The notes under the pieces were generated by a model. It was not told where the DNA came from, did not search any database, and worked only from the letters and a program-made list of their open reading frames with translations. From an uncultured Victivallis sp. (lineage in GTDB: Bacteria > Verrucomicrobiota > Lentisphaeria > Victivallales > GWF2-50-93): a DNA stretch of 33,855 nt. The translations under genes were made by a program, and so were the position numbers. This document shows, one piece after another, positions 14,528 to 30,363 of this stretch (its first letter is position 1; every line of letters begins with the position of its first letter). Location: positions 1 to 33,855 of the forward strand of contig CAZDNQ010000001.1 in the NCBI GenBank assembly GCA_964506605.1. The letters are read 5' to 3'.

Positions 14528-14584
14528 GACATCTCCTATTTCTCGGAGCTTTTCTCCTTCCTGAAGCCAGGAGGCGGAGAGGAT

Positions 14585-15418: not shown

Positions 15419-15517
15419 ATAATTTTTGTCCATTCATCGGGCATCTGCTGGACAATAACATCTGGAAGCTGAATATTACGGTTTTGCAAAACCAGGAAAA
15501 CAGGAAGTTACAGACCT

Positions 15518-17497
15518 ATGTCTTGGCCTGCCAGGATCACAGCTGTTCTTATCGGACTTGTATGCGCCTGCGTCATATGGGTGTTCCAGCCGATAAACAA
15601 TTTCCTTCTCAATAATTCCTATATCGCCGACAACTACATCCCCGAGCTTGGAATGGGGATGATCGCGATGCTTGTATTGTGCGCCAACCCGCTGCTCCGC
15701 CGTTTTGCGCCGAAGTTCGCCCTCAGCTTCCACCAGCTCGCGCTGGTGTTCGGCATAATACTGGTCTCATGTTCGGTGTGCCAGTTCATGAGGATATTCC
15801 CGCATGCGTTCGCCAGGGTGAACCGCGACGCGATACGGGAGAAGGTGCTGAACGACATCCACAGGAGCATGAACCTGCCTTCAATACTATATATAGACAA
15901 GATCACCGGCAAGGAGGCAGATGCAACCGGCCCCTTCCTGGAAAAGTCGGAGGCGGTGAAGGACATACCGTGGTCCGCATGGGTAGGCCCTGCATTTGTC
16001 TGGGGCATAATGGCGTTCTCGTGCTTCCTGATGATGTGCGGCATGGCGCTGATACTTTTCCCGCAGTGGCGTGACAATGAAAGGCTCTCCTTCCCCCTCC
16101 TTACAGTCCAGCAGTCCCTGATCGAGGATCCGGAAAAGGGAAGGCTTTTCCCGCCGATATTCACGAACAGGATATTCTGGTTCGGCTTCGGACTGGTCTT
16201 CATAATCCACGCAATGAACGGACTCAACCACCACACAGGGCAGCTGATCCCGACTTTCCCCCTCAAATGGAACCTCTGGAATGCTTTCTCGCAGGGGATG
16301 TGGGGCTATATGGACTGGTACGTGAAGTCAGGCTCCATACTTTTCATAATGGTGGGAATCACCTATTTCATGCCCAACAGGGTCGGATTCTCCCTCTGGT
16401 TCACCATGATCCTGCTCCAGATCTACAAGATGATCGGCTATGAATATTTCGCGCCTTTCTTCCCTGCGTCCGTCGATGAAAACAGGAACGGGGCGACATA
16501 CGGGGTGGCGCTGGTGATCCTATGGCTGGGGCGCAAGCATTGGATGACGGTGTTCAAGTCCATGTTCCGCAGGGCGGATACCGATGAGGACGTCAGGAAC
16601 AGGACTGCCGGATGGATATTCAGCTCGGGGCTGATCGTGCTCCTCTCCTGGGAGATCTGGGCCGGAATCCCGCTACTCTGGTCCCTTGTCTTCATAGGTG
16701 TATTCTTCGTGACAAGCCTGATCATGGCGAGGGTCGTCGCAGAGACAGGATTCCCGTTCATCGCGAACTACACCACGATCCTCACCCTGCTTTATGCGGT
16801 CCCGATAAAATTCCTTACCGCCAAGATCATCTTCTTCGGCGGAATATTCGATTTCATAGTCGGTCCGGGAACATCGCGCACCTCAGCAACCGTCTATTTC
16901 CTCCATGCGTTCGGACTGAACAAGGACAACAAGCCCCGCCAGACAGCGAGCCTCGGGAAATGGCTGCTCGGCGTGATATTGGCCGGATGCATCGTGATGG
17001 GCGCAGTCCATCTCTGGCTGGGCTACACCTACAGGGGCTCGGTCGATGGAGACAAATGTCCGATCTCATGGTGGGGCAGCATGAACGGGAACTGGGGAGT
17101 GCACGATCCGATGAAGGCATATGAAAGGGGCTCATGGAACAATACCATACCCTATAACCAGCCCCTGCACCTGGCCGCCGGATTCATCCTTGGGGCGGGG
17201 CTCCAGATCATGTGCCTCGTCTCGCCGAACTGGCCGCTGCACCCGATAGGCCTGCTCATGATGAACGGCTGGTTCCTGGGGATGTCATGGTTCAGCATAT
17301 TCCTCGGCTGGACGTTGAAAAACCTGATCACCGGATATGGCGGGGCGCGCGCATACCGGCTCGCAAAACCGCTGTTCCTTGGATTCATCCTCGGCGAGGT
17401 GTTCTCGGCGATTCTCTGGGCGCTTGTCCCGGTAATCATAATCGCCCTAGGAGGAAATCCCACGGAGACCGGACATATCGTGATCGTCCCGCAGTAG
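15518..17497 (+). CDS. 659-aa polytopic membrane protein, paralogue 1 (distant OPT-like / DUF6785-DUF6784-like, tentative)
   Basis: It has at least 12 hydrophobic helices, a QWRDNERLSFPL motif after an early helix pair and a C-terminal WPLHPIG..GYGGARAYR..KPLFLGFILGE. AGGAAG lies 10 nt upstream of the ATG. Confidence 0.85.
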   Translation: MSWPARITAVLIGLVCACVIWVFQPINNFLLNNSYIADNYIPELGMGMIAMLVLCANPLLRRFAPKFALSFHQLALVFGIILVSCSVCQFMRIFPHAFARVNRDAIREKVLNDIHRSMNLPSILYIDKITGKEADATGPFLEKSEAVKDIPWSAWVGPAFVWGIMAFSCFLMMCGMALILFPQWRDNERLSFPLLTVQQSLIEDPEKGRLFPPIFTNRIFWFGFGLVFIIHAMNGLNHHTGQLIPTFPLKWNLWNAFSQGMWGYMDWYVKSGSILFIMVGITYFMPNRVGFSLWFTMILLQIYKMIGYEYFAPFFPASVDENRNGATYGVALVILWLGRKHWMTVFKSMFRRADTDEDVRNRTAGWIFSSGLIVLLSWEIWAGIPLLWSLVFIGVFFVTSLIMARVVAETGFPFIANYTTILTLLYAVPIKFLTAKIIFFGGIFDFIVGPGTSRTSATVYFLHAFGLNKDNKPRQTASLGKWLLGVILAGCIVMGAVHLWLGYTYRGSVDGDKCPISWWGSMNGNWGVHDPMKAYERGSWNNTIPYNQPLHLAAGFILGAGLQIMCLVSPNWPLHPIGLLMMNGWFLGMSWFSIFLGWTLKNLITGYGGARAYRLAKPLFLGFILGEVFSAILWALVPVIIIALGGNPTETGHIVIVPQ

Positions 17498-17550
17498 ATA
17501 TTTATTGATTTGAAGATTGGATGACTTGGCGATTTGATGGATAACAAAAC

Positions 17551-20500
17551 ATGTATAGAAATGTGAAATTTATTATTGCGGTGTTCGTAGCGCTTGCGGC
17601 GGCGGCGGGATTCTGCTCTGATGACGGCATGCTCGCGCAGATCCGCAGCGATGCCGGTTTATTCTGTTCCAGCCCCGACCGTTCCACCGGCGGCGAAGGC
17701 GCAAGGAAGACCGGAGACTTCATAATTGAAAATGCATCCTCTCTTCCAAACGTAAAGGTGTTCATCCAGGAGTTTCCCGTCATCGTCCCTCACACGCTAA
17801 GATCGGAGATACGGATCGAAAAGGGCGAATTCGCGGGAACGCACAGGATCTATCCGGTATGGCCCGACAACGTGCGCATGAAGACAACTCCTCCCGGAGG
17901 TATAGAGGGAACGCCTGTCTACATCGGCGACGGCGACTACAACGAGATCCCAGGCACCAGCATCCGCAACCAGATCGCTGTTATGGAGATGTCGTCATAC
18001 GGGTTCGGCACCTGGTGGCGCGCCTTCGATTTCGGCGCCAGGGCAGTTATCCTTCTCGGTTCGAAGGACGACAGCCTGAGCCTGCCAAACGACATGCCTT
18101 TCTACAAGCCGCGCTACTATCTGCCGGAAGGCAAGCTCGCCGACGCCATGCGCCGGGGTGAAATAAAGAACGCAGCCATATTCTGCAGCCAGGAATGGAA
18201 GACGGCGACCGCAAGAAACATTATCGCAGTGGTCTCAGGCAAGGAGGCTTCAATCAAGGTTCCGCTGGTGATCTCGGCCTGCTATGACGCGACAAGCATC
18301 GTGCCGGATCTGTCGCCGGGCGCATACAACGCCGTGAATTCCTCCTTCCTGCTCAACTTTCTCAGGTTCCTTTCAGCGCATCCTCCGGAACGTCCGGCCG
18401 TCATCGCGTTCGTGGAGGGATTTGGGATAAACCAGCTAGGGATGCGCCAGCTTATGGCCATGCTCTCCCTGGATCCTGACGACATCACCCGCAAGAGCTT
18501 CGAAGAGAAGATGGAGAAGCAGCTCGCCGAATACGAGAAGGCTTGCGTGCTTGCCGGGGAACTTGGCGATGACGCTGTACCAGCACTCTCAAAGCTGAAC
18601 GACAGGAAGAAATATGAGATCCTCCAGCAGTATGCGAAGGATGAACTCAGCCCGGAACTGGTCAAGCTCAAAAATGAGACCGGAAAGCTGAGGCTGGCGA
18701 TCGCCAAGGCCGGCAGGATGGACTGCGAGAAGGAGAAAGGCGAACTCGCGGTGAAGTCCGCAAGGGTCGAACTGCTCAACAGGCTCCTCTGCCAGATCAT
18801 CCTTTCCGGAAAGATCGACCAGGACCTGCACGACGAGTCCGGAAAAGTCTGGTCCGGCATCCGCAGCCGCGTCTCCGCCCAGCTTGCATCCATGAAGTCG
18901 AGAAGCGGATATTTCAAAGATCTTGACCAGATGAGGTCCGGCATCCTCAAGACATGCGGCCTTGACATCTCAACCAGGCTTCCCTTCCCGTTCATCGTCG
19001 GCATAGATCTTTCCGACGCCGGCTGCAACGTCGGCCCAGCTCTGTGGTGCCAGCATCTTGGAGTCAACGAAATAGAGTCGTCCAGGGAATTCACACGCTG
19101 GCTGACCTCCTTCATAACAGATCCCTCCAAGGAACTCTCGTCCATACCGCAGGACCGGATCTCCGGTCTTGGCGTCGAACAGGGCGACATCAGATCGCTG
19201 ATAAGCTCCTTCATGAACGCGGAATCGGTGGACGTCAGTTCGATCGAACGGCTGATCCGAAGCAAACTGCCAGCTATTTCCAAGGAGAAGATCGACAATA
19301 TCGCCAACAAGATCAAGATGACGAGGCGGGAGGGGATTGTCGCGGAAGAGACGATTTCACAGGCCCTGAAGGACGAACTCCAGGGCATGACCCAGGAGGA
19401 GATGTCGCGGCTTACCAAGTCGGTCATGAACCGCCAGTCCGTCGAGGACTCCTCAGCTCCGGAATCGTTCCTGCCGGAAGGAGTCGGACTTCTTACATCG
19501 CAGGCGGACGGCTTTGGAATGCAAGGTGTGACCTGGGCGACGCTCGAGGGCATCCGCTCGCGTTTCGACACTCCGCAGGACACGTATGCCAGCCTCAACT
19601 GGAACAGGCTCGATCCGCAGCTCCGTCTCACGTCGATAGTCATGGCATGCCTGCTCAACAGCAAGATTTTCAATGTGAAGCTCGGAGAGGACACCGGATG
19701 GCCTCGCTGGAGGATGCCATACGGCACAATAGTAGGGGAATCGATCGCCGGCACGATCCCGAAGACGCCCGAGCCGGGGATCCTCGTAAACTACACGAAC
19801 TCAAACTGGTGGAGCCCCTGCAACAAGGTCCGTGGAATAAGGGGCATGGAGATGGTGAAGACCGGCGCCGACGGGACATTTATTTTCCCTCCCGTGCGCA
19901 TCCCCTATGACTGGAAGACCGAGTGGAAAAAGGTGAACGCCTACAAGCTTTCCGAGGACGGCAGGCCGGTCCGGGGAATCTCCGACATAAACACCACCGT
20001 CGTGGGAAACCTCTCCTCGTCGTTCAATCTCCGTTCACGTCCTCCTATGAAGGCCCTGAGGGCCGTCATGTTCGAAGGCGTGGAGATGGAAGGCCCTACT
20101 ATAAAGGATCCGAGATACCAGTGCCAGCTCAACGAATACAAGCTGATCGATGTCGGCCGCGGCGGAACTCCGAAACGGTACAACTTCAGGTTCGCCTTCG
20201 GAAGGATGACAGGCATGCTCGAGAAGGACACCTACTGGCAGCTGATCTTCAGGATTGGCTCCTCCAACAGGATGGCCCTTATGAACGTGCCCCAGGATGC
20301 GGCCGATGGGAAGATCTCGCTGCGCGACGCCATCAACTGCGGCTACAGGATCGGCGAGGAGCTGCCTGCCCTGCCGGAGGAGATATCCGCGTCCGACTTC
20401 TTCAGGATAGACGAATGGCGCCTGAGGAATCTGGAAAGCGCCGGGGTCATCTGCAGATCGATCAGGAACATCCATGCCGACACCAAGGAATGCTTCAAGC

Positions 20501-22680
20501 AGGCCGATGACGCCAGGAAGGCCGACAACGGGGCCGCACTCAAGCGCGCGTCCTGCGCCGCCCTGGCGAACGAGATCCGCGTATACCATGCCGTGCAGAA
20601 CCAGGCGGACGACGTCAGCCGCGGTGCAATATTCCTCCTGCTGCTCCTTGTGCCGTTCTCAATTGCCATGGAACGCCTCCTCTTCGCCTTCCCCGGCATT
20701 GGCAGGCAGATAATGGGAAGCTCCGGAATCTTCCTCCTGATGGGAGGAGTCCTCGCGAGCTTCCATCCCGGATTCCGCATTACATCGCAGCCGATAATAA
20801 TCCTGCTCGCGTTCTCAGTCCTCCTCCTGAGCCTGATAGTGATAGTGATGGTGTTCCAGAAGTTCAAGGGCGACATGGAGGAGCTCCAGCGCGGATCACT
20901 CGCCGAGGCCAGCGGAGCCCAGATCAACCGAGCAGGCGTGATCTTCAGCGCGGTCTGGCTCGGGATCGCCAACATGAGGAAACGGCTTCTGAGGACCGTC
21001 CTCACCGGTTTCACCATCATGCTGATCACCTTCTCACTCCTGTGCTTCACTTCCTCCTCCTCATACCAGGACAAGAGGGAGACGACCTTGGACAAGTGCG
21101 GCTCAAAGAATGCTCCGGGTATCCTCATCCAGCATCCTGCAATGCGCTCGCTGGACACCGAGACTGAAGAGAACATCAGCAATTTCCTCGGGTACAGCCA
21201 TGCGGTCGCAGGCCGTTACTGGATAGTCTCCGGCAATCCGAACTGGAGGCTGCATGTAAGGAATCCGATGTCCAACAAGCTCGCAGCCCTTAAGGGCGGG
21301 CTGGGACTGTCCCCTTCAGAATCAAAAGTCGGATCAATTCCAAAGTATCTACCGGACTGGGAAAAGTTCGCCGCCGGCGACGGCTGCTACCTCAGCAGGA
21401 GCACGGCTGAACAGCTTGAACTGAAGCCGGGGGAGAAGGTGACTGTCGGAGGGCGCGAGCTTGTCCTGGCAGGTGTGTTCGACGCAAAGGATTTCGAGCA
21501 GAACGCAAGGAAGATCGACGGAAACCCCATCGCACCTATCGATTTCACCGTGGAAAGGGACAATGGCTCCCTGAGCCAGAAGGCAATCGAAGGAGAGCTC
21601 GCGAGCGGAAACATGCTGGCGGTCTCGGACACGTTCAGATATGTGTCTCCCGACGAAATGATCATCGTCCCTGCGGTTCTCGCAAGAAAGATGGGAGCGT
21701 CCCTCAGGAATATCGCCGTGCAATCCAATTCAGACGACTCCGCCAGCACCGCCGAACATCTCATGAAGCTCCTCGTATATCCCGTCTACTACAGCGCTGG
21801 GAACGAAGTCAGGGCGATCGTCTCGACACCCCTGCTCCCGAAGGCGCCGCGCCAGCTCCTCATACCGATAATCATAGCGGCCCTGATAATCTTCAACACC
21901 ATGCTCAATTCGATTGCGGAAAGAAAGAAGGAGATCCATATATACAGCAGCCTCGGACTCGCGCCAGGCCACATCGGAGTGCTGTTCCTGGCAGAGGCTC
22001 TGACGTACGGCATGATGGGATCGGTGTTCGGCTATGTCGCCGGACAGGGCATCGCAACCGCCCTCACCAGCTTCAATCTCATGGGAGGGATCACCCTGAA
22101 CTACTCAGGCTCGAACGTGATATTGACGATGGGGCTTGTACTCATGGTCGTCACACTCTCCTCCATCGTCCCCGCAATAATGGCTGCGAGAGTCGCAAGC
22201 CCGAGCAGGGAGCTCGACTGGCGCGTCCCGAAACCAAAGGACGGCGTCATCTCCGATCTCCTCCCGTTCACCGTCAACACGCACGCATCCCACGGCCTTG
22301 TCTCGTTCCTCTTCGAATATCTCGACGCCCACCGCGACGGCGCGATCGGCAATTTCACCTCCGACAAGCTCAACGTCAGGGAAATCGACGGCGGACATAT
22401 ACAGGTTGAAGGAATAGTCTGGCTTTCACCGTACGACCTCGGCGTCAGGCAGGAATTCGAGCTGGTGATATCTCCGACCGGAGTCGAGGACATCTGCAGC
22501 CTGAGGATCCTCCTGCGGCGCGAGGCGGGCGACGAGAGATCGTGGTGGAGGCTCAACCGCGTATTCATCGGAGACCTGCGCAAACAGCTGCTCGGATGGA
22601 GGAACATCTCTTCTGAAAGAATGCTCAAGTATGTCACGGAAGGAAGGATGAGGACGAAGAGGAAGACCGCAGATGCGTGA
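17551..22680 (+). CDS. 1709-aa fusion protein: signal peptide, PA/M28-like extracytoplasmic module with coiled-coil insertion, unknown beta-rich region, 3 TM, FtsX/MacB-type permease (4 TM plus about 270-aa periplasmic domain), and about 160-aa cytoplasmic tail
   Basis: A single uninterrupted ORF. It has a signal peptide (MYRNVKFIIAVFVALAAAAGFC) and an M28-like stretch (ARNIIAVVSGK..VISACYDA..PGAYNAVNS..IAFVEGFG). The MacB-type TM1 is IANMRKRLLRTVLTGFTIMLITFSLL. The FtsX domain is IIAALIIFNTMLNSIAERKKEIHIYSSLGLAPGHIGVLFLAEAL..IVPAIMAARVASPS. Confidence 0.9.
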   Translation: MYRNVKFIIAVFVALAAAAGFCSDDGMLAQIRSDAGLFCSSPDRSTGGEGARKTGDFIIENASSLPNVKVFIQEFPVIVPHTLRSEIRIEKGEFAGTHRIYPVWPDNVRMKTTPPGGIEGTPVYIGDGDYNEIPGTSIRNQIAVMEMSSYGFGTWWRAFDFGARAVILLGSKDDSLSLPNDMPFYKPRYYLPEGKLADAMRRGEIKNAAIFCSQEWKTATARNIIAVVSGKEASIKVPLVISACYDATSIVPDLSPGAYNAVNSSFLLNFLRFLSAHPPERPAVIAFVEGFGINQLGMRQLMAMLSLDPDDITRKSFEEKMEKQLAEYEKACVLAGELGDDAVPALSKLNDRKKYEILQQYAKDELSPELVKLKNETGKLRLAIAKAGRMDCEKEKGELAVKSARVELLNRLLCQIILSGKIDQDLHDESGKVWSGIRSRVSAQLASMKSRSGYFKDLDQMRSGILKTCGLDISTRLPFPFIVGIDLSDAGCNVGPALWCQHLGVNEIESSREFTRWLTSFITDPSKELSSIPQDRISGLGVEQGDIRSLISSFMNAESVDVSSIERLIRSKLPAISKEKIDNIANKIKMTRREGIVAEETISQALKDELQGMTQEEMSRLTKSVMNRQSVEDSSAPESFLPEGVGLLTSQADGFGMQGVTWATLEGIRSRFDTPQDTYASLNWNRLDPQLRLTSIVMACLLNSKIFNVKLGEDTGWPRWRMPYGTIVGESIAGTIPKTPEPGILVNYTNSNWWSPCNKVRGIRGMEMVKTGADGTFIFPPVRIPYDWKTEWKKVNAYKLSEDGRPVRGISDINTTVVGNLSSSFNLRSRPPMKALRAVMFEGVEMEGPTIKDPRYQCQLNEYKLIDVGRGGTPKRYNFRFAFGRMTGMLEKDTYWQLIFRIGSSNRMALMNVPQDAADGKISLRDAINCGYRIGEELPALPEEISASDFFRIDEWRLRNLESAGVICRSIRNIHADTKECFKQADDARKADNGAALKRASCAALANEIRVYHAVQNQADDVSRGAIFLLLLLVPFSIAMERLLFAFPGIGRQIMGSSGIFLLMGGVLASFHPGFRITSQPIIILLAFSVLLLSLIVIVMVFQKFKGDMEELQRGSLAEASGAQINRAGVIFSAVWLGIANMRKRLLRTVLTGFTIMLITFSLLCFTSSSSYQDKRETTLDKCGSKNAPGILIQHPAMRSLDTETEENISNFLGYSHAVAGRYWIVSGNPNWRLHVRNPMSNKLAALKGGLGLSPSESKVGSIPKYLPDWEKFAAGDGCYLSRSTAEQLELKPGEKVTVGGRELVLAGVFDAKDFEQNARKIDGNPIAPIDFTVERDNGSLSQKAIEGELASGNMLAVSDTFRYVSPDEMIIVPAVLARKMGASLRNIAVQSNSDDSASTAEHLMKLLVYPVYYSAGNEVRAIVSTPLLPKAPRQLLIPIIIAALIIFNTMLNSIAERKKEIHIYSSLGLAPGHIGVLFLAEALTYGMMGSVFGYVAGQGIATALTSFNLMGGITLNYSGSNVILTMGLVLMVVTLSSIVPAIMAARVASPSRELDWRVPKPKDGVISDLLPFTVNTHASHGLVSFLFEYLDAHRDGAIGNFTSDKLNVREIDGGHIQVEGIVWLSPYDLGVRQEFELVISPTGVEDICSLRILLRREAGDERSWWRLNRVFIGDLRKQLLGWRNISSERMLKYVTEGRMRTKRKTADA

Positions 22681-22712
22681 TACGTCTGATCAATTGAATT
22701 GGAAATGGGAAT

Positions 22713-24707
22713 ATGAGGGAAGACAAGGAATATAAAGAATTCAGGGATCTGATGAAGCGTCCGGAGAAGTTCGAGGACGGCTTCAACAGCGGAACCGTGG
22801 TCATGGGGCTGTTCGTCGGCCTCGTGATGGCACCTGCCTCCGTGTATATGAATCTCGTCGCCGGACTCCATATGGGCGGAGCCGCGCAGTGGGTGACGGT
22901 CCTGCTCTACGTCGAGATCGCCAGAAGGGCGTTCAAGAAGCTGAGCCGCCCGGAGATATTCGTCCTCTTCTACATGTGCGGCGCCGCGATAGCCGCAGGC
23001 GGACAGGACTGGCTGTGGCGCCAGTTCCTCGTGCAGAGCGAGGAGATGAGGAAGATGGGGCTCATCGAATATATTCCGTCGTGGTTCGCGCCTACCGATC
23101 CGGAGATCCTCAAGAAGCACAGCTTCCTGATGTGGGAATGGCTCTGGCCGATCGGCATCACCTGCCTCATGATGCTCCTCCAGCGTGTCGACCACTTCGG
23201 ACTCGGATATGTGCTGTTCAGGCTGACGGCGGACGTCGAGGAGCTTCCTTTCCCCATGGCTCCTGTAGGGGCGGCAGGAATGACGGCTCTTGCGGATGCG
23301 TCGGCCGACAGGGAGACCTGGCGGTACCGTGTATTCTCGATGGGCGCGATCCTCGGAATTTTCTTCGGTGCAATCTATATCGCGCTGCCAAGCATAACAG
23401 GAGCTTTCCTGTCTGAGCCGATCCGTCCTATCCCGATGCCGTTTGTCGATCTGACAAGCTACACTGAAAGCGTCCTCCCTGCATCGCCGATTATGTTCTC
23501 GTTCGACCTTGGATACGTAATATTCGGCATGGTGATGCCGTTCTGGGCGATCATAGGCTCCCTTTTCGGAGTCATATTCACCATGTTCTTCAATCCAATA
23601 CTCCAGCTGACGGGATTCCTCGGAGGATGGGAACCGGGCCTCAACGCGATGGATACCGTGCGGTCGAACGTCTTCGACTTCTACTTCAGCTTCAATCTAG
23701 GCCTTCTCTTCGCCGTCGCCGCAATAGGAATATTGCACATGTACAGGACATTCCAGAAGAAAAAGAAGGAGGCCGACGAACTGGGCAAGGCCGGCATCGA
23801 CTGGGGCAGGCTCTTCAAAAGTCCGGAAGGCAGGGGCGACTTCTCGATATGGATCGGCGTGGCGATATATGTAGCCTCAACCCTGACCTATGTTCTCGCC
23901 ACATACTATCTTGTCAACTACGGATCCGGCCCCCTCGCAGGAAACATGTTCCCGTTCTGGCTGCTGCTTGTATATGGTTTCATCTGGACGCCGTTCATCA
24001 GCTATATCTCGGCGCGAATGGAAGGTCTTGTCGGACAGCAGATGCAGATACCGTTCGTCAGGGAGTCGACGTTCATCCTTTCCGGATACAAGGGCGCGGC
24101 GATCTGGTTCGCGCCGATACCGCTCCACAATTATTCCTACCAGGTGCTGCAGTTCCGACAGATGGAGCTGACCGGCACGAAGTTCACATCATTGATAAAG
24201 GCTGAAATAATCACCTATCCCCTGATGATCGTCGGAACCATGATATTCGCGCAGTTCATATGGTCGATCGGCCCCGTCCCGAGCGAGATGTTCCCGTATG
24301 CAAACGAGTTCTGGGAACTCAATGCATATAACCAGGGTCTTGTATATACCGCAACCCTGCCGGGAGAGGTGCTGAATCCGTTCCGTGAATCGTTCCGGCC
24401 AGATCTGATCTGCGGAGGATTCGGAATGGCGATGATCCTCTACGGGATTCTTGCGCACTTCAACCTACCGGTGTTCCTGGTATACGGAATGATCCGCGGC
24501 CTCGACCAGTCTCTGCCGCACACCATCATACCGACGATCATCGGCGCGATACTTGGCCGTTACTTCTGCAGCAGGTGGTTCGGCGAAAAATGGCCACAGT
24601 ACAGGGTCGTCTTCGCCGCCGGATTCGGAGCTGGAATGGGGCTGATAACAATGTTCGCACTGGGAATAGTGTTCATGAGCAAGAGCGCAAACCTGTTCCC
24701 GATATGA
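22713..24707 (+). CDS. 664-aa polytopic membrane protein, paralogue 2 (distant OPT-like, tentative)
   Basis: It has at least 12 hydrophobic helices. VEELPFPMAPVGAAGMTAL resembles the OPT-family LPFPSGTATA motif and the ERLSFPL motif of the 15518 gene. The C-terminal Gly-rich helices are similar to paralogue 1. Confidence 0.85.
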   Translation: MREDKEYKEFRDLMKRPEKFEDGFNSGTVVMGLFVGLVMAPASVYMNLVAGLHMGGAAQWVTVLLYVEIARRAFKKLSRPEIFVLFYMCGAAIAAGGQDWLWRQFLVQSEEMRKMGLIEYIPSWFAPTDPEILKKHSFLMWEWLWPIGITCLMMLLQRVDHFGLGYVLFRLTADVEELPFPMAPVGAAGMTALADASADRETWRYRVFSMGAILGIFFGAIYIALPSITGAFLSEPIRPIPMPFVDLTSYTESVLPASPIMFSFDLGYVIFGMVMPFWAIIGSLFGVIFTMFFNPILQLTGFLGGWEPGLNAMDTVRSNVFDFYFSFNLGLLFAVAAIGILHMYRTFQKKKKEADELGKAGIDWGRLFKSPEGRGDFSIWIGVAIYVASTLTYVLATYYLVNYGSGPLAGNMFPFWLLLVYGFIWTPFISYISARMEGLVGQQMQIPFVRESTFILSGYKGAAIWFAPIPLHNYSYQVLQFRQMELTGTKFTSLIKAEIITYPLMIVGTMIFAQFIWSIGPVPSEMFPYANEFWELNAYNQGLVYTATLPGEVLNPFRESFRPDLICGGFGMAMILYGILAHFNLPVFLVYGMIRGLDQSLPHTIIPTIIGAILGRYFCSRWFGEKWPQYRVVFAAGFGAGMGLITMFALGIVFMSKSANLFPI

Positions 24708-24719
24708 GGAAGATGACAG

Positions 24720-25655
24720 ATGGCAGAGGACAGAAAACAGAATGAAGAAAAGATGGGCAAGATGAGCCAGAAGAACGAAACTGACTTCATAAGCTGGCAG
24801 GGATTCAGGATTCCGCTTATGAGGGAATGGCGTCCGCTGAAGATAGAAGGCGGATTCCGCAAGGGCTCGGTCGCGATTGGCGACGTGTCAGGCCCACTCT
24901 TCGAGATCAGATGGGTGAGACCGGATGCAGCCGACTTCGACGGACGCGCCTGGATCAGCAGGAACAAGGAGCGGTCCAGCGACAACATCGCTTCCGCTCC
25001 GCCACGTCCGCAGGGGTTCTCATCCGTCGGATGGATAAAGGAGTTCGAGGACAAAGGTTCATCGAAGAAGACAGTTTGGTGGGGATATTCCGTTGAAGGA
25101 ATGGTGTTGATTGAGATAGTCGTAGGCGAAATCATTGACAAGCCATCATATGAATGGATAATTTCGGAGGCGATACCATCCCTCAAGGTGTCGAAGCCCG
25201 ACGAGGAATGGATCTGGAGGATCTTCAGCGCGCAGTTCTCGGTTCCAGCAGGCTTTGTCCTGGAAAGGCACAGGCTGAACAACGGCGACATGTCCCTTTG
25301 CTTCACACGCGGGAAGAAGGAGAGGCTTGTCATGCGCCAGGTATATCCTGCGGACCTCGCAGTCGGCAGGAGATCCCTTGAAAAATGGTTCGACGAGTCC
25401 CCATTCAGGGAGAGCAGGAAGTTCAGGGAGGCGAAGGACGGCGTACGTTGCGAAAGGAAGAAGGATTTCACGGTGGACGGATGGAAGCTTGTCCCTTTTC
25501 CGTTCGGATTCGTAAGGCCGCGCAGGTGCCGCAGGCTTGCTGCGGTTGACGATGCCAGTGACAGGATCTTCATGACGGAATATGAGTATGGGAAAAGGGA
25601 TTCGGGCGAAGCTGCGGAGTTCGCAATGAAGAAGATGCGCGGAGGCGTCCTGTGA
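24720..25655 (+). CDS. 311-aa soluble (cytoplasmic) protein of unknown function, Trp/Arg-rich
   Basis: The ORF starts 12 nt after the preceding stop, with GAGGAAG upstream, and ends in a GTGA overlap with the next gene. It has no TM segment, no signal peptide and no recognisable motif. Confidence 0.75.
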   Translation: MAEDRKQNEEKMGKMSQKNETDFISWQGFRIPLMREWRPLKIEGGFRKGSVAIGDVSGPLFEIRWVRPDAADFDGRAWISRNKERSSDNIASAPPRPQGFSSVGWIKEFEDKGSSKKTVWWGYSVEGMVLIEIVVGEIIDKPSYEWIISEAIPSLKVSKPDEEWIWRIFSAQFSVPAGFVLERHRLNNGDMSLCFTRGKKERLVMRQVYPADLAVGRRSLEKWFDESPFRESRKFREAKDGVRCERKKDFTVDGWKLVPFPFGFVRPRRCRRLAAVDDASDRIFMTEYEYGKRDSGEAAEFAMKKMRGGVL

Positions 25656-26023
25656 ACCTGTTCGGAAATGTCCCGAAGAATGATGCGATGGGGCGCGCCG
25701 CGGCGCTTAACGCGTGTCCGGTGCGCACCAATGCGGTCAAGACGGAGGAGAAGAAGGACAAGCTCTACGTGACGGTCCTCTTCATGAGGCCGAAATGGCA
25801 GCAGTGGCTTGGGGCCGAGGAGAAATGCCAGCGGACGTTTGGACTGGACAAATACGGAGTGGAAGTATACCGTGCCTGCGACGGTGGGACTTCCGTTAAG
25901 AAGATAGTTGATGTTTTTGCGGAAAACCATAAGATGAGCATCGCCGAAGCGGAGATATCTGTATGCCAGTTCATAAAGACTCTGCTGATAAAGGGGCTTA
26001 TTGTAATGCAGGTGGAGAAATAA
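25652..26023 (+). CDS. PqqD-family / RiPP-recognition-element (RRE)-like small protein
   Basis: 123 aa with a GTG start overlapping the upstream stop (GTGA). FGLDKYGVEVYRACDGGTSVKKIVDVFAENHKMSIAEAEISVCQFIKTLLIKGLI matches the PqqD pattern (L...g..vw..cDG..tv.eIv..l...y.....a..dv..Fl..L...gli). Confidence 0.7.
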   Translation: MNLFGNVPKNDAMGRAAALNACPVRTNAVKTEEKKDKLYVTVLFMRPKWQQWLGAEEKCQRTFGLDKYGVEVYRACDGGTSVKKIVDVFAENHKMSIAEAEISVCQFIKTLLIKGLIVMQVEK

Positions 26024-26033
26024 GGTCAATACG

Positions 26034-26684
26034 ATGAAGACAGAACAGGAAATTATGGAGATCGAGTCCCTGCCGCTGGGGAAGATAATCAGCATCACCT
26101 GCAAGGGGATCAGGATACGCATATGGCGGTCCCTCATAGTGGTGTCCGGCATCGTCCTCGCGATCGCGTTCCTGTCGTACATCCTCTGCTCGGACGGCTT
26201 TGCGCAGAACGTCTCAAAGGCGGCGGGAAGCGCGCTGGAGCAGGCAAACCCGGAAAAGATCCAGGAACTGAAGGACCAGCGCGTCCAGACATACTGGATG
26301 GTCGGGCTCGCGATACTGATAAGCTTTGTCGGAATAATAAACGCCATGCTGATGAGCGTCACCGAAAGGTTCCGCGAGATCGGAACGATGAAGTGCCTCG
26401 GCGCGATCGACTCGTTCGTCCTGAAGATGTTCCTGATAGAGAGCGTGATCGAAGGAGTGATAGGCGCAATCTTCGGCGTGTCCGCCGGAATCGCGATCGC
26501 CTATGCCGAGGGCATGTTCACATATGGTTCGGGAGTATGGACGATGCTGCCGGCCGGATGGTTCATGTGCGTCGTCGGCTTCTCATTCGTCACAGGTGTG
26601 ATAATAACCGTAGTAGCGGCCCTCTATCCGGCCCGCGAGGCCGCGAAGATGACCCCGGTCGTGGCGCTGAGGGCGGAGCTGTGA
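26034..26684 (+). CDS. Minimal FtsX-family ABC permease (4 TM, extracytoplasmic loop of only about 45 aa)
   Basis: 216 aa. TM1 is IRIWRSLIVVSGIVLAIAFLSYIL. The FtsX core is INAMLMSVTERFREIGTMKCLGAIDSFVLKMFLIES...ALYPAREAAKMTPVVALRAE. Confidence 0.88.
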   Translation: MKTEQEIMEIESLPLGKIISITCKGIRIRIWRSLIVVSGIVLAIAFLSYILCSDGFAQNVSKAAGSALEQANPEKIQELKDQRVQTYWMVGLAILISFVGIINAMLMSVTERFREIGTMKCLGAIDSFVLKMFLIESVIEGVIGAIFGVSAGIAIAYAEGMFTYGSGVWTMLPAGWFMCVVGFSFVTGVIITVVAALYPAREAAKMTPVVALRAEL

Positions 26685-26742
26685 GGAATGACGAATATCG
26701 AATTGCGAAATCAATTTGAAGACAATTGGATTTTGAAGGAGC

Positions 26743-26759
26743 GCCGGCGTCCCGCCGGC
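26743..26759 (+). promoter_or_regulatory. GC-rich hairpin (GCCGGCG-TCC-CGCCGGC) between a GAAGGAG Shine-Dalgarno and the ATG of the first ATPase gene
   Basis: Perfect 7-bp all-G/C stem with a 3-nt loop. GAAGGAG (26735-26741) lies immediately 5' and the ATG (26761) lies 2 nt 3' of the stem. Confidence 0.5.
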
Positions 26760-26760
26760 A

Positions 26761-27552
26761 ATGAATATAATGGGCGGAAACATGGAAAATGATAAAGCGG
26801 CTGAAGTTGCGGAAAACCATCTCTCCACGAACTACGTGGTCCGGGCCACCGGCGTGAAGAAGGTCTACACCATGGGCAGCGAAAAAGTCCATGCCCTGCG
26901 CGGCGTCGATTTCGCGGTGCGCCGAGGCGAATACATTTCCATCATGGGCCCTTCCGGCTCCGGCAAGAGCACTCTTTTCAACATGATTGGCGGATTGGAC
27001 AAGCCGAACGAGGGACAGGTCTACATCGACGAGGTCGACATCGCAGCGCTCAATCCCGTCGAACTCGCCTGGCTCCGCTGCCACAAGGTCGGATACATAT
27101 TCCAGACCTACAATCTCATAACCGTGGCGACCGCCCTGGACAATGTCATGCTGCCGATGACATTCGCCGGAATGCAGCAGGCGGACGCACAGGACAAGGC
27201 CGTCAAGCTCCTGGAAAAGGTCGGACTCGGAGAACGCGTCCTCCACAAGCCTCTCCAGATGTCTGGCGGACAGCAGCAGCGCGTCGCAATCGCCCGCGCG
27301 CTGGCGAACAGCCCGTCCATAGTCCTCGCCGACGAACCGACGGCGAACCTGGACAAGAAGACCGGACTCCAGATCATAAACCTCCTCAAGGAGCTCAACC
27401 AGTCGGAGGGTGTCAGCATAATCACGGCGACGCACGACCACAAGATGCTCGACATATCCGACAGGATAGCGTGGGTGCGCGACGGACGCATAGAGAAGTT
27501 CCAGAAACGCTCGGAACTGGAAATCAAGGAAGGTGAGATGCATGTCCAGTGA
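26761..27552 (+). CDS. ABC transporter ATP-binding protein, MacB/LolD/FtsE-type (copy 1)
   Basis: It has Walker A (GPSGSGKST), a Q-loop (IFQTYNL), the signature MSGGQQQRVAIARAL, Walker B (IVLADEPTANLD) and an H-loop (ATHDH). An alternative start is ATG 26782. Confidence 0.93.
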   Translation: MNIMGGNMENDKAAEVAENHLSTNYVVRATGVKKVYTMGSEKVHALRGVDFAVRRGEYISIMGPSGSGKSTLFNMIGGLDKPNEGQVYIDEVDIAALNPVELAWLRCHKVGYIFQTYNLITVATALDNVMLPMTFAGMQQADAQDKAVKLLEKVGLGERVLHKPLQMSGGQQQRVAIARALANSPSIVLADEPTANLDKKTGLQIINLLKELNQSEGVSIITATHDHKMLDISDRIAWVRDGRIEKFQKRSELEIKEGEMHVQ

Positions 27553-28267
27553 CAATGTCATTTCCATAAAGAAGGTAAAACGCTGCTACCGCATCGGGGG
27601 GGAGACTGTCTGGGCGCTCGACGGGGTGGATCTCGACATACGCCGAGGCGAATACCTTTCCATAATGGGTCCGTCCGGCTCCGGCAAGAGCACCCTTTTC
27701 AACATGATAGGAGGGCTTGACCTCCCGAGCGAAGGGGAAGTCACGATCGACGGCGCTTTCCTTACGAAGATGAACCAGAAGCAGCTGGCATATGTCCGCT
27801 GCAAGAAAATAGGATATATTTTCCAGACGTTCAACCTGATAGAGGTGATGTCCGCGGCAGAGAACGTAATGCTCCCTATAATCTTCAGCGGCGTTTCCGA
27901 CGAGGAGGCGAAGCAGAGGGCTATAGAGATTCTCGACAGGGTCGGACTCTCCGGACGATATGACCACAGGCCTTCGCAGCTTTCCGGCGGACAGCAGCAG
28001 CGCGTCGCAGTCGCCCGTGCACTTGCCAACACCCCGGCGATCCTGCTCGCGGACGAGCCTACCGGAAACCTCGACCTCAAGACAGGAGAGGAACTCATCC
28101 GCACGCTGCAGAAGCTCAAGGATGAACTCGGTGTCACAATCATAACCGCGACCCACGACCACAAAATGCTGGCGGCATCAGACCGGGTCATCTATCTCGA
28201 AGCCGGCAAGATCATCGACATCAAGACAAAGGAGCATCTCTCCTTCTCATTTGGAAAGATTGGATGA
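27542..28267 (+). CDS. ABC transporter ATP-binding protein, MacB/LolD/FtsE-type (copy 2, tandem paralogue)
   Basis: It has Walker A (GPSGSGKST), the signature LSGGQQQRVAVARAL, Walker B (ILLADEPTGNLD) and an H-loop (ATHDH). The ATG at 27542 is preceded by AAGGAAGGTGAG and overlaps the copy-1 stop by 11 nt. The longest ORF begins at GTG 27533. Confidence 0.93.
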   Translation: MSSDNVISIKKVKRCYRIGGETVWALDGVDLDIRRGEYLSIMGPSGSGKSTLFNMIGGLDLPSEGEVTIDGAFLTKMNQKQLAYVRCKKIGYIFQTFNLIEVMSAAENVMLPIIFSGVSDEEAKQRAIEILDRVGLSGRYDHRPSQLSGGQQQRVAVARALANTPAILLADEPTGNLDLKTGEELIRTLQKLKDELGVTIITATHDHKMLAASDRVIYLEAGKIIDIKTKEHLSFSFGKIG

Positions 28268-29759
28268 TGCTCCGTACGGGTTTGAAAAAAAGGGGGATTC
28301 CTTGACATATTTTCTTCTTGCTCTGATAATCATCCTTGCCTCATTGGCTGCGGTCCTTGCATGCTGGAGCCTCAGGAACAGCAGGGCGGCGTCGAAATCT
28401 GCGGCTTTCCTTGCACAGAACCAGCACAAGCTGGCGGAGTTCCGCAAGAGTTCCATACCGGCATCCTCTGCCGGAAACGAAGAAACGGCCATGGAAAAGT
28501 TCATTGAACTGATAGATGGCATCTTCCATCCCGACGCATCTGTCATATACCTCCACAGGAAAGACGGCGGCAAGGAGACCATTGAAATCATGTGCTGCTC
28601 AGGGGTCGTCTCTTCCGTCTTCGTAAGCGGCTGGTCCTCCGAGAGCAGGGAAAAGGTCATGGACAGCCTTGAAAAGTATATCATATTCTCATCCCGTCCG
28701 CATCTGCTGTCTTCCGGGGAGATCTCAGGAAATATCCCTTCCCCGTTCCCTTTCAGCCCTGGAGCCGCGATCGCCTCAGTGGTGAAGGCGGAGAACCATG
28801 CCTACTACATCCTGCTTCTGAAAAAGGATGTCCGGTCGAGTTTTTCGGAAACCGAGTGCGCCTCTCTTGACTTCTGGAGCTCCTGCATGGAAAAGGAGAT
28901 TCTCCGCATATGCGCTGCAAGGGAGAAGGATTCGATGGGCAACGCCCTGCAGAAGGCCCACGAGGAGGGAATGGTCCAGATCTCGTCCGGCATCATACAC
29001 AACATCGGCAACGGACTTACCGTCCTCCAGATGCAGATGAAGTCACTTGAACACCACAGGCAGATAAGGGAGCTGAGCGATTTCCTGCACAAGGAGGCGC
29101 TTCCTGTAATCCAGTCACATGTGAAAGACGGCACCCTGCTCGAATTTTTAAAGGATGATCCCAGCGGAAAAGCATATCTCGAGGTCATAGGTGAATCCCT
29201 GAGGCAGATATCGGCGTTGAGCCTCGAACTTGGGGAGAACCTGGACAAATCCCTGAAGATGTTCTCCGGCATACTGGAGGTCATAAACCTGCAGCACCAG
29301 TTCATAGGCGAGCTGGGGACGGAGAATGTCGTCTCCATCGAGTCAATAATAAGGGATGCCATCCTGATGTCGCAGTCAATCATTGCAGAAAACAAGATTG
29401 CCCTGGTAAAGAAGATAAATTCCAGATCAAACCTGCTTGTCGACGCGGCCCTCTTGAAGCATATAACCGTGCTGAACATCAAATATGCCGTGGACTCCAT
29501 AAACAAGGCCAGCAGGTCTGAGCCGGTGATCTCAATAGGCAGCTCCGAGGAAGTTGAAAACGGCAGGCTGTGGATAATACTGGAGATAAAGGACAACGGA
29601 TATGGAATCGACTTCAATCCACAGGGGGAGGACCAGCGCGCGCGCGACCTCAGGTTCTGTAGCGAACGTATTGCCAAGTACGGAGGCAGATACAACATCG
29701 AATTCAGACAGGGCTACGGTTCAGTGATCACTTTCAGGATGCCGGGATATGTTTCCTGA
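28251..29759 (+). CDS. Membrane-anchored histidine kinase without an extracytoplasmic sensor domain
   Basis: It has a single N-terminal TM (YFLLALIIILASLAAVLACW), a cytoplasmic GAF/PAS-sized region, an H-box (SSGIIHNIGNGLTVL) and HATPase_c motifs (LEIKDNGYGID, GYGSVITF). No in-frame ATG lies near the 5' end, so the start is TTG 28251/28260 (overlapping the ATPase stop) or TTG 28302 (AGGGGGA RBS). Confidence 0.85.
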   Translation: MERLDDAPYGFEKKGDSLTYFLLALIIILASLAAVLACWSLRNSRAASKSAAFLAQNQHKLAEFRKSSIPASSAGNEETAMEKFIELIDGIFHPDASVIYLHRKDGGKETIEIMCCSGVVSSVFVSGWSSESREKVMDSLEKYIIFSSRPHLLSSGEISGNIPSPFPFSPGAAIASVVKAENHAYYILLLKKDVRSSFSETECASLDFWSSCMEKEILRICAAREKDSMGNALQKAHEEGMVQISSGIIHNIGNGLTVLQMQMKSLEHHRQIRELSDFLHKEALPVIQSHVKDGTLLEFLKDDPSGKAYLEVIGESLRQISALSLELGENLDKSLKMFSGILEVINLQHQFIGELGTENVVSIESIIRDAILMSQSIIAENKIALVKKINSRSNLLVDAALLKHITVLNIKYAVDSINKASRSEPVISIGSSEEVENGRLWIILEIKDNGYGIDFNPQGEDQRARDLRFCSERIAKYGGRYNIEFRQGYGSVITFRMPGYVS

Positions 29760-29793: not shown

Positions 29794-30042
29794 AGTTCAC
29801 GAGTCGCGGCAACTGCAAGGAAACGAGACGAAGCTGTGATAACCACTGCGAGTTGAAGCTGACGCCGCAGTTGCCGATGAATCGTGAACTCCCTTCGGGT
29901 TTTGAAAGAGATGAACTATTTTGTGCAAAACGAATTTTTCCATTTTGAACTCATATTTCAGATTCTCATCTCTTTCAAAATCGGGATTAGGGATAAAAGG
30001 AGAAGGAGCCCCACGGAGGGGGAATCCGCAGAACTCCTTCTT
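29794..30042 (+). other. Highly structured non-coding island containing three long inverted repeats; candidate structured 3' UTR or ncRNA, family not recognised
   Basis: IR1 pairs 29794-29802 with 29882-29890 (9 bp) and 29807-29816 with 29867-29876 (10 bp). IR2 pairs 29898-29914 with 29966-29982 (17 bp including one G-U). IR3 pairs 30001-30008 with 30034-30041 (8 bp), enclosing CCCC-ACGGA-GGGG. A CUUCGG tetraloop-type motif lies at 29893-29898. Confidence 0.45.
29898..29982 (+). repeat. Inverted repeat GGTTTTGAAAGAGATGA / TCATCTCTTTCAAAATC with a 51-nt loop
   Basis: 15 consecutive Watson-Crick pairs (29900-29914 with 29966-29980) extend by a G-U and a G-C pair. The G-U works only if the plus strand is the transcript. 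Confidence 0.7.
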
Positions 30043-30223: not shown

Positions 30224-30322
30224 TCAGGAGAAAATCGCCGGTATCGCATAAGCTATCACCACTATCATGACTACGGCGTATGTCAGAACATCCATCGGAG
30301 TAAATCTCAGTTTGTTCTTCAT
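30224..30322 (-). CDS. Unannotated 32-aa hydrophobic small protein (MKNKLRFTPMDVLTYAVVMIVVIAYAIPAIFS)
   Basis: The ATG at 30322 is preceded by GGAGG (30335-30331) with an 8-nt spacer and by a consensus sigma54 promoter about 40 nt further upstream. The product has a basic N-terminus plus one predicted TM helix. It is below the 60-aa cutoff of the ORF track. Confidence 0.55.
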   Translation of the reverse strand: MKNKLRFTPMDVLTYAVVMIVVIAYAIPAIFS

Positions 30323-30363
30323 ATTCACTACCTCCGTACTCTTGATTTTCTGATAGTTTTATT

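Follow-up and report, generated by a model that had tools for sequence, protein, structure and literature searches.

A conserved, uncharacterised type VII ABC-based gene module with a putative OPT-family permease in an uncultured Victivallis species and other bacteria

We analysed a contig of 33,855 nucleotides (nt) from an uncultured Victivallis species (GenBank CAZDNQ010000001.1), the whole of which we call the window, with particular attention to a cluster of nine genes at positions 15518 to 29759. Eight of the nine form a unit that recurs in more than 70 uncultured bacteria from at least six phyla and is predicted to combine a type VII ATP-binding cassette (ABC) engine with a divergent permease of the OPT family. 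The first interpretation, made from the sequence alone, proves partly right: the unit is conserved, self-contained and uncharacterised and is built on a type VII engine, and there is a real chance that the machine represents a new class of hybrid transporter.

Gene positions were taken from a six-frame list of open reading frames (ORFs). In order along the forward strand, on which all features of the cluster lie, the genes are A (15518-17497), encoding a polytopic membrane protein of 659 amino acids (aa) with DUF6785 and DUF6784; G (17551-22680; 1709 aa), an FtsX/MacB-type permease; B (22713-24707; 664 aa), the putative OPT-family permease; U311 (24720-25655; 311 aa), with a predicted tandem PsbP/Mog1-like fold; a gene with a GTG start for a small PqqD-like protein (25652-26023; 123 aa), resembling the recognition elements (RREs) of ribosomally synthesised and post-translationally modified peptides (RiPPs); X (26034-26684; 216 aa), a minimal FtsX permease; N1 (26761-27552; 263 aa) and N2 (27542 or 27533 to 28267), two ABC ATPases of the LolD/MacB type; and a kinase-like gene with a TTG start (28251-29759; 502 aa). 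The original prediction, made from the sequence alone, had described nine co-directional genes at these places, and the ORF list confirms all of them. Most of the spacers it had given between successive genes (53, 32, 12, -4, 10 and 76 nt, and -17 nt before the kinase-like gene) are exact. The spacer between N1 and N2, given as -11 nt, is right if N2 starts at the ATG at 27542, and becomes -20 nt if N2 starts at the GTG at 27533, which yields the longest ORF. We prefer the ATG, since AAGGAAGG, a good match to a Shine-Dalgarno sequence, lies 9-16 nt before it.

The GTG start of the PqqD-like gene overlaps the stop codon of U311 as GTGA (-4 nt). Such stop/start overlaps are also present at locus L001, a distant relative with a U311 of only about 35% identity, where B and U311 overlap by 4 nt, the PqqD-like gene and X by 4 nt, and N1 and N2 by 11 nt. 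A terminator scan showed no strong-stem intrinsic-terminator-like site on the forward strand inside the cluster, and no overall excess of such sites (13 found versus 14.8 expected). There is no Rfam match or tRNA anywhere in the window, and no riboswitch or RNA leader that would hint at a substrate. Of the earlier description of a nine-gene, translationally coupled operon, the tight coupling around a heteromeric type VII ABC engine stands; the gene number has to be reduced, as the conserved unit comprises eight genes and the kinase-like gene is specific to a lineage.

Judged by their sequences, G (in its C-terminal MacB-type unit) and X contribute two FtsX-type permease units, and N1 and N2 are two ATPases with the motifs needed for catalysis; taken together, they make up the parts of a type VII ABC engine. 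The FtsX domain of G lies at residues 1439-1547 (Pfam PF02687, E = 5.6e-15) and that of X at residues 89-208 (Pfam, E = 3.4e-16). N1 matches ABC_tran with E = 2.1e-33, and scores 231 bits with the NCBIfam model of LolD, whose equivalog cut-off is 307.75; its Walker A (GPSGSGKS), signature (MSGGQ) and Walker B (IVLADE) motifs and its H-loop are intact. N2 matches ABC_tran with E = 1.5e-35 and has canonical forms of all four of these motifs. The best NCBIfam matches of the two ATPases are LolD, MacB, DevA, DarD, YbbA and FtsE. The FtsX domains, the PqqD domain and the pair of ATPases had all been proposed before, and they are upheld by these Pfam and NCBIfam matches and by the intact motifs.

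We examined the architecture of G using hydropathy averaged over an orthologue alignment. There is one N-terminal segment, followed by transmembrane (TM) peaks at residues 1025-1040, 1057-1068 and 1081-1100 and then at about 1153, 1438, 1473-1499 and 1525. This profile suggests an N-terminal signal or anchor, an ectodomain of about 1000 aa, three TM helices, a MacB-type unit of four TM helices with a periplasmic core domain (PCD), and a C-terminal domain of 160 aa; a cytoplasmic loop would join the three extra TM helices to the MacB-type unit. The type VII unit occupies residues ~1135-1548 (20953-22194) and consists of TM1, the PCD (1171-1430) and the FtsX TM2-4. When a profile of 25 G orthologues was compared with the PDB, the C-terminal part matched YtrF, MacB, LolF, LolC and LolE, and the alignments with the last four extend from the end of the PCD through TM4. 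The FtsX domain is found in all 25 orthologues, and MacB_PCD in 7 of them; full-length homologues of G number 45. Residues 942-1105 (20374-20865) form three long stalk helices (positions 917-994 of the AlphaFold2 model described below), and then the three extra TM helices, ahead of the MacB-type unit. The C-terminal domain (residues 1549-1709; 22195-22677) should be cytoplasmic because it is placed after TM4, by analogy with the topology of MacB; searched alone, it has no match in Pfam or PADLOC. X has four TM helices, as judged from sequence and hydropathy, an outer loop of only ~35 residues and no PCD, and is presumed to be the heterodimer partner of the FtsX unit of G.

The proposal that these genes belong together is borne out by neighbourhood analysis. 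A scan of one genome per species confirmed 115 loci, and the results given here concern 80 of them, all from metagenome-assembled genomes (MAGs), which we searched with the nine window proteins. These loci belong to Victivallales/Lentisphaerota, Verrucomicrobiota, Kiritimatiellia, Phycisphaerae, other Planctomycetota, Sumerlaeota and Omnitrophota, at least six phyla in all, and single loci were also found in bins labelled as Nitrospirales and Anaerolineales. The window, a metagenomic contig (JGI 3300010352), has its closest relatives in MAGs of Lentisphaerae/Victivallales. The dominant gene order is A-G-B-U311-PqqD-X-N1(-N2). In a second subtype, the order is (PqqD)-X-N1-G-B-N2(-A-U311-PqqD), B is 42-47% identical to that of the window, and X is longer, at ~440-590 aa.

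Components were counted in 39 non-redundant loci with enough flanking sequence. G lies directly upstream of B in all 39, an ATPase is present in 36, U311 in 33, A in 32, X in 30 and the PqqD-like gene in 26. The counts for X and the PqqD-like gene are underestimates, because the ORF filter dropped some overlapped genes. Two ATPases are present in 22 of these loci and one in 14; N2 is absent from about a third of the related loci. Genes for B proteins that are at least 55% identical to that of the window never stand alone and always follow G. Two copies of the module can occur in a single MAG (L049 and L057 in ARS65; L073 and L080 in maxbin.317), and one locus has a tandem A-G-B-A-G arrangement (L033, 2395-21974). 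This presence of two copies in several MAGs resembles substrate-specific uptake loci rather than single-copy housekeeping genes. Judged by this co-occurrence, by the overlaps conserved in a distant relative and by the fusions of U311 with the PqqD-like protein described below, the module is real and ancient.

Conservation is distributed unevenly over the module. In 28 complete loci, the median identity to the window proteins is 71% for N1, 70% for B, 66% for N2, 47% for X, 46% for the PqqD-like protein, 43% for G, 36% for A and 31% for U311. Within G, the membrane segments have median identities of 60-65% (60% for the three extra TM helices and 65% for TM2-4), versus 16-40% for the ectodomain; the values for the PCD and the C-terminal domain are 32% and 45%. 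The conservation of B, the ATPases and the TM part of G, together with the variability of the ectodomain and U311, would fit a fixed engine and channel with a variable substrate-facing arm. As a separate observation, the two closest relatives share an insertion of ~280-320 nt between the PqqD-like gene and X (L010, 11793-12067; L023, 13594-13914), possibly a small mobile element or repeat, which is conserved between both and which the window lacks.

B is the most conserved membrane component and, to judge by profile comparisons, is predicted to be a divergent OPT-family permease. The window protein aligns with the Pfam OPT profile (PF03169) over positions 133-619 of 623, with E = 0.018 and 14.1 bits versus a gathering threshold of 25.8. 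The orthologue in L001 scores higher (23.5 bits, E = 2.6e-5). There are at least 1795 homologues of B; the best 120 of these are 62-93% identical, all are ~664 aa long, and about half of them have a precomputed PF03169 assignment. Some sources name such proteins 'peptide transporter' or 'OPT/YSL family transporter'. Hydropathy indicates ~14-16 hydrophobic segments in B.

A carries DUF6785 (Pfam, E = 5.2e-77, 259.9 bits) and DUF6784 (E = 2.1e-22, 79.6 bits), both above threshold, and has ~14-15 hydrophobic segments in the hydropathy of an orthologue alignment. It may be very distantly OPT-like. The suggestion that B is a paralogue of A is not sustained by direct comparison, in which BLASTP gave E = 0.21 and hhalign a probability of 12% with E = 0.0024; one motif, ERLxFPL/EELPFPM, is common to the two. 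Neither A nor B has a relative in the PDB by sequence or profile search.

The ectodomain of G begins with a fold that the original prediction had missed. Residues ~26-310 (17626-18480) have an M28/PA aminopeptidase-like fold from which the catalytic and metal-binding residues have been lost. In the comparison of the 25-sequence G profile with the PDB, this region matches the aminopeptidase 2ek8 with E = 3.2e-17 and, weakly, nicastrin (1e-3). In the alignment with 2ek8, HHDS is replaced by C-Y-D-A, NDDASG by YNAVNS, and EE by G-F. The first zinc-ligand His (with Tyr or another residue instead) and the Glu-Glu pair are lost in 25 of 25 orthologues, and the window protein also lacks the bridging Asp. 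Given these missing catalytic and zinc-binding residues, the domain is a pseudo-peptidase, and the possibility that it is an active enzyme was rejected from the 2ek8 alignment and the 25 orthologues.

An AlphaFold2 model of residues 26-1020 of G has a mean local confidence (pLDDT) of 89.6 and a predicted TM-score (pTM) of 0.87. Foldseek searches with it retrieved 2ek8, BSAP, PaAP, the transferrin receptor (TfR) and GCPII, at E = 1e-15 to 1e-10. The model predicts an M28/PA core, an inserted helix bundle, a beta-rich region and three long stalk helices that extend toward the membrane. The inserted bundle, at residues ~312-468 (18484-18954; model positions 287-443, pLDDT ~90), follows the core and is composed of helices of ~30-35 residues. 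It belongs to the least conserved stretches of G, with a median identity of 24%, along with residues 471-660 (16%). The beta-rich, sandwich-like region at residues ~724-910 (19720-20280; model positions 699-885, pLDDT 82-94) has a median identity of 32% and was assigned to no family.

It had been stated that the operon contains no recognisable enzyme. This is not confirmed, for the N-terminus of G does have an M28/PA peptidase fold, albeit an inactive one. Likewise, G had been described as an ectodomain-FtsX fusion; the FtsX part holds, and the description misses the dead M28/PA domain on its helical stalks. The presence of such a domain means that a receptor or EnvC-like element may be built into the machine rather than absent from it.

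The membrane core of G has relatives that are already catalogued. The PADLOC model PDLC01991, 'CARF_m8--CARF_LolE_TM', matches residues 958-1656 of G (20422-22518) with E = 3.7e-54, and the related model 'CARF_m8--CARF_Beta-galactosidase_LolE_TM' matches more weakly. The match with the LolE_TM model covers the stalk and three TM helices, the PCD and the FtsX TM2-4, with residues 942-1105 of G corresponding to model positions 12-206; the final ~150-250 model positions, which presumably represent the CARF-like part, have no counterpart in G. It follows from this match that a wider family of giant FtsX proteins with the membrane core of G has already been catalogued computationally. The composition of the models implies that this family may have interchangeable hydrolase-like outer domains and possibly a ligand-sensing cytoplasmic tail. 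The C-terminal domain of G sits where the catalogued relatives are named as CARF-like. We take Makarova et al. 2020, a CARF survey that is cited in PMC12669027, to be the source of the CARF_m8 models. We also considered whether the locus is an anti-phage defence system, and rejected this, since PADLOC returned only generic ATPase matches and the CARF_m8 LolE_TM match on the core of G, and there is no CRISPR or defence context.

U311 has no Pfam, NCBIfam or PADLOC family. Its AlphaFold2 model (pLDDT 82, pTM 0.78) contains two alpha-beta domains, and Foldseek relates it to PsbP, Mog1, the type VI secretion system immunity proteins TplEi and Tli4 (over the full length) and, weakly, EagT6. According to this model, U311 is predicted to be a tandem PsbP/Mog1-like binding fold that is non-enzymatic. 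The lack of family matches and the tandem PsbP/Mog1 fold rule out our candidate assignment of U311 as an HPr-kinase-like, or other, enzyme. A full HMMER scan of the U311 family found 698 representatives at E<=1e-3 among 1.84 billion; nearly all are ~300 aa long and a few are ~452 aa. Some of the long products are fusions with the PqqD-like protein, as in L006, whose 452-aa product carries a PqqD domain, and in P0130, P0151 and P0183 (452-453 aa).

The small protein encoded after U311 matches Pfam PqqD (E = 9.5e-8, 32.7 bits versus a cut-off of 23.4) and, weakly, the NCBIfam models of PqqD and the lasso RRE. PqqD/RRE domains are peptide-binding domains known from RiPP recognition elements. The PqqD-like gene co-occurs with U311 in most loci, and the fusions and the GTGA overlap argue that the two proteins act together. 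Neither protein has a signal peptide or TM helix.

We tentatively favour a reading of these data that we nevertheless think somewhat more apt to fail than to hold, namely that the ABC motor uses ATP to capture a peptide-like substrate in the periplasm and passes it on to the putative OPT permease. The proteins of the module would form one complex. ATP binding and hydrolysis by N1 and N2 would move the PCD and stalk of G, as in MacB, LolCDE and FtsEX, and the dead-peptidase head would capture the substrate, which might be a polypeptide or the free end of a peptide. From there it would be passed to B, possibly with A, as a path across the membrane, most likely in the inward direction. The pair of RRE and PsbP-like proteins could bind either the peptide as it enters or a tail of the machine on the cytoplasmic side, and might act as a receiver, a gate or an assembly factor. 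In the lineage of the window only, the kinase-like protein, whose gene is coupled to N2, and the neighbouring NtrC-type regulator may report the activity of the machine.

In support of such peptide uptake, a peptide theme appears four independent times: in the OPT signature of B, the aminopeptidase-fold receptor of G, the PqqD/RRE protein, and the PsbP/Mog1/Eag-like fold of U311, a fold that binds proteins or peptides. The commonest flanking family, Peptidase_M24/AMP_N (8 of 126 neighbour ORFs), and the two copies of the module in several MAGs point the same way. The identity of B also bears on the original prediction of a mechanical machine that performs no transport. If B is an OPT-family protein, then the machine probably includes a real transmembrane pathway, which argues against a purely mechanical, non-transport reading.

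It is important to emphasize that several points weigh against peptide uptake. The score of the window B is below the Pfam OPT threshold, and B has no NCBIfam OPT match. To our knowledge, the known type VII ABC systems move no substrate across the cytoplasmic membrane, and OPT permeases run on protons, with no requirement for an ATPase. RRE proteins of the cytoplasm normally go with the biosynthesis and export of peptides, not with their import. An identity of ~70% across phyla, as seen for B, is unusual for a nutrient permease. The most frequent neighbour, a Peptidase_M24 gene, is linked to the module in only ~8 loci with shared synteny, and other flanks contain glycoside hydrolases, oxidoreductases and sulfatases. 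Finally, the complex, the substrate and the direction that we propose all go beyond what gene content, folds and co-occurrence show.

A bolder form of the same idea is that the module is a new transporter architecture in which a type VII mechanotransducer and an OPT-superfamily channel, obligatorily coupled in their function, carry out the ATP-powered capture of long peptides or whole polypeptides and their import across the cytoplasmic membrane, with a dead-aminopeptidase arm outside and an RRE/PsbP-like receiver inside. We regard this as unlikely; if true, it could provide a molecular basis for the uptake of macromolecules in bacteria of the Planctomycetes-Verrucomicrobia-Chlamydiae (PVC) type.

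Among the rival explanations, the one that survives best is that the machine does the classical outward or extracytoplasmic work of type VII systems, e.g., extracting or expelling a lipoprotein, a lipid-linked molecule or a toxic compound from the outer leaflet or the periplasm, or assisting envelope assembly, with B and A as scaffolds or substrate-access channels. All of the characterised relatives that are the best NCBIfam matches (LolCDE, MacB, DevA, DarD, YbbA and FtsE) act in this manner, the extreme conservation of B, N1, N2 and the TM part of G resembles that of housekeeping envelope machinery, and the helical stalks predicted for G could span the periplasm. However, no gene for an adaptor, an outer-membrane factor or a carrier is present in the window or recurrent in the flanks, the scores are far below the equivalog cut-offs of LolC, LolE and LolD, and the distribution is patchy, with duplicates in some genomes. 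The OPT-like partner and the cytoplasmic RRE/PsbP pair would be left unexplained. We consider outward work unlikely.

A second possibility is that G is a built-in analogue of FtsEX-EnvC, whose ATP-driven movements would be transmitted through the helical bundle to the dead head, activating or presenting a separate periplasmic hydrolase that acts on the cell wall or on surface proteins, with B importing the released peptides. A degenerate peptidase on long helices at an FtsX unit does mirror EnvC, in which a coiled coil bears a dead LytM domain, and the PADLOC relatives carry a hydrolase-like ectodomain, named 'Beta-galactosidase', on the same membrane core. We nonetheless think this explanation improbable, as no partner hydrolase is conserved nearby, the FtsX part of G scores 19.8 bits versus a cut-off of 255, and the M28 fold is unrelated to LytM/M23.

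The ninth gene raises a third possibility, that of sensing and detoxifying antimicrobial peptides in the manner of BceAB-BceRS, with signalling through the kinase-like protein to an NtrC-type regulator. The kinase-like gene encodes no large periplasmic domain and overlaps N2 by 17 nt, and downstream of it lies a convergent gene for an NtrC-type response regulator (30552-31970, reverse strand), followed by a perfect sigma54 promoter. However, the identification of the ninth product as a histidine kinase could not be maintained. HATPase_c gave E = 0.17 with the whole protein and 0.051 with its C-terminal part (12.8-14.5 bits versus 26.4), HisKA gave no match, and no kinase was retrieved from the PDB; Pfam, NCBIfam and PDB searches with the whole protein, its C-terminal half and a Victivallis orthologue found nothing significant, and we rejected the assignment. 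By eye, we can see an H-box-like motif, IIHNIGNGL, and a G1-like motif, DNGYGID, and the protein has one N-terminal TM helix and ~190 residues without a recognised fold before the putative H-box, so that its earlier description as sensor-less is not verified either. An orthologue that is 72% identical exists only in one Victivallis lineage (L002-4 and L009), and the closest relative (L023) has no such gene after N2, nor is it present in L001 and L005-L007. Because the kinase-like gene is confined to the window and this one lineage, the conserved unit consists of eight genes. This near-absence from related loci, including the closest, also counts against Bce-like signalling, as do the TM arrangement of G (1+3+4, not the 10 TM helices of BceB) and the general knowledge that Bce regulators are of the OmpR type. 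We judge Bce-like sensing to be very improbable.

The presence of a PqqD/RRE domain might bring to mind the export of a RiPP or bacteriocin, together with immunity, where the domain would recognise a leader peptide. The ATPases indeed score well against the models for the exporter ATPases of darobactin (DarD) and lactococcin-972. However, across ~80 loci we found no conserved small intergenic ORF, no modifying enzyme is recurrent (radical SAM occurs in 3 of 126 neighbour ORFs), and U311 is predicted to have a binding fold, not an enzyme fold, such that we attach very little weight to this explanation. Mere juxtaposition of an OPT-type permease pair and an ABC transporter that are not one system is scarcely credible, for although a 6-kb Phycisphaerae contig has a 47%-identical B-like gene with no G upstream (L067, 2632-4614) and another locus has X and N1 on the other strand (L049, where U311 and the PqqD-like gene were not detected within 10 kb), G adjoins B in every one of the 39 well-flanked loci, all eight families persist through two gene orders and ~43% divergence of B, and the stop/start overlaps are conserved. 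The first of these loci does suggest that more distant relatives of B may exist outside the module.

We also looked for further partners beside the module, using 126 neighbour ORFs of the related loci, from which the 25 most frequent families were considered. The usual partners of type VII systems had been reported as absent, and this was corroborated: no MacA/HlyD-type adaptor, TolC, substrate-binding protein or EnvC/PcsB is present in the window or recurrent beside the module, and there is no HlyD/MacA adaptor or outer-membrane factor among the window ORFs or the 25 families. No family is universal among the 126 ORFs, and the flanks thus offer no additional conserved partner or regulator. 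The commonest family is Peptidase_M24/AMP_N, with 8 of the 126 ORFs; as it is seen in ~8 syntenic loci, it may reflect one clade.

In the window, a gene for an AraC-family regulator (14510-15418, forward strand; HTH_18, HTH_AraC and AraC_binding) lies 99 nt upstream of A and is co-directional with it, with a weak sigma70-like site (15449-15477) between the two. The AraC-family protein, which may regulate locally, is outside the conserved module and not among the recurrent neighbour families of related loci. Immediately beyond the NtrC-type gene, on its downstream side, there is a sigma54 -24/-12 element with 0 mismatches, TGGCACGGTCATTGCT (30364-30379, reverse strand), followed by an ORF of 34 aa (30224-30328, reverse strand), whose N-terminus, MNMKNKLRFTPMDVL, is prepilin-like, and by a terminator (30001-30041, reverse strand) whose stem is 17 bp long. 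Together these have the appearance of a small unit under sigma54 control that lies between the kinase-like gene and the regulator. On the other side of the cluster, a pseudopilin-like gene with DUF1559 and an N-terminal-methylation motif (13600-14424, reverse strand) and a 778-aa ORF without a Pfam family (11237-13573, reverse strand) are typical of the gene content of Planctomycetes and Lentisphaerae, and we see no link to the module. Further away, a gene for a PlsC-type acyltransferase (4122-4892, reverse strand) overlaps by 4 nt one for an Acetyltransf_5/FeeM-like N-acyltransferase (4889-5701, reverse strand), a pair that we take to resemble the OlsA/OlsB pair of ornithine-lipid synthesis.

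The module would matter for several reasons. Type VII ABC systems are generally described as performing mechanical work on the outer side of the membrane while moving nothing across it, and OPT permeases as proton symporters that work unaided. A pairing of an FtsX engine with an OPT-like permease that is inseparable across at least six phyla, with the permease kept at ~70% identity, would be a new coupling of primary and secondary transport elements. To this, G would add a bacterial dead-peptidase receptor, of the transferrin receptor/nicastrin type, built into a membrane machine. The module also provides a first context for DUF6785 and DUF6784 and for a tandem PsbP-like family of ~700 clusters. 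The carriers are abundant uncultured polymer degraders of sediments and digesters, and the function is likely to matter for the feeding of PVC-type bacteria or for their unusual envelopes.

The original prediction held that the operon matches no known system, and this agrees with the literature that we searched in full text, in which the gene set is undescribed and was not found assigned to a characterised system; the names DUF6785 and DUF6784 are absent from the papers so searched, and the one earlier trace that we found is the PADLOC match to the membrane core of G. Among known systems, the module is most like MacAB-TolC, LolCDE and YbbAP in having FtsX units of four TM helices, a MacB-like PCD in G, ATPases of the LolD/MacB clade and, as in LolC/LolE, a heteromeric permease pair. 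Unlike MacAB-TolC and LolCDE, it lacks an adaptor, TolC or a LolA-type partner, and the equivalog cut-offs for LolCDE are missed by G (27.9 bits with LolE; cut-off 439) and X (47 with lolCE; 362), as they are by N1 with LolD. It also differs from type VII systems generally in that one permease unit is contained in the 1709-aa G, with three extra TM helices, an ectodomain of ~1000 aa and a tail, that X is almost devoid of a periplasmic domain, and that the engine has as obligate companions an OPT-like permease, a DUF6785 protein and a pair of binding proteins in the cytoplasm.

Like FtsEX with EnvC or PcsB, the module would couple an FtsX-type engine to an inactive peptidase-fold domain on long helices. 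However, in G the dead domain, which forms one chain with the permease, is of the M28/PA type rather than LytM or CHAP, no amidase or other hydrolase partner and no division-gene context is evident, and the cut-offs for FtsEX are missed as well (FtsX_Gneg, 19.8 bits for G and 28 for X versus 255; FtsE, 198-208 versus 264.85). The likeness to BceAB-BceRS applies to the window only, where the ABC genes are translationally coupled to a gene whose kinase-like product has no periplasmic sensor domain; it does not extend to the conservation of the kinase-like gene, to the 1+3+4 hydrophobic segments of G versus 10 TM helices, or to the regulator, which is of the NtrC/sigma54 type. The PqqD domain, which scores above threshold, is like that of RiPP recognition elements, but it comes without a precursor peptide or modifying enzyme and is instead partnered or fused with a tandem PsbP-like protein.

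B is like the OPT family (PF03169; TC 2.A.67) in its alignment to nearly the whole profile, its size of ~660 aa and its ~14-16 hydrophobic segments, and unlike that family in scoring below its gathering threshold in the window, in having no NCBIfam OPT match, in always following G (at 55% identity or more) and in being far more conserved than is usual for permeases. The ectodomain of G differs from that of the PADLOC CARF_m8 Beta-galactosidase model in being M28/PA-like. In this respect it resembles the transferrin receptor, nicastrin and nicalin, which also keep the M28/PA fold on a membrane complex after loss of the zinc ligands and catalytic Glu; unlike those receptors, G is bacterial, is fused to an ABC permease, and has a large inserted bundle of helices as well as an additional beta-rich region.

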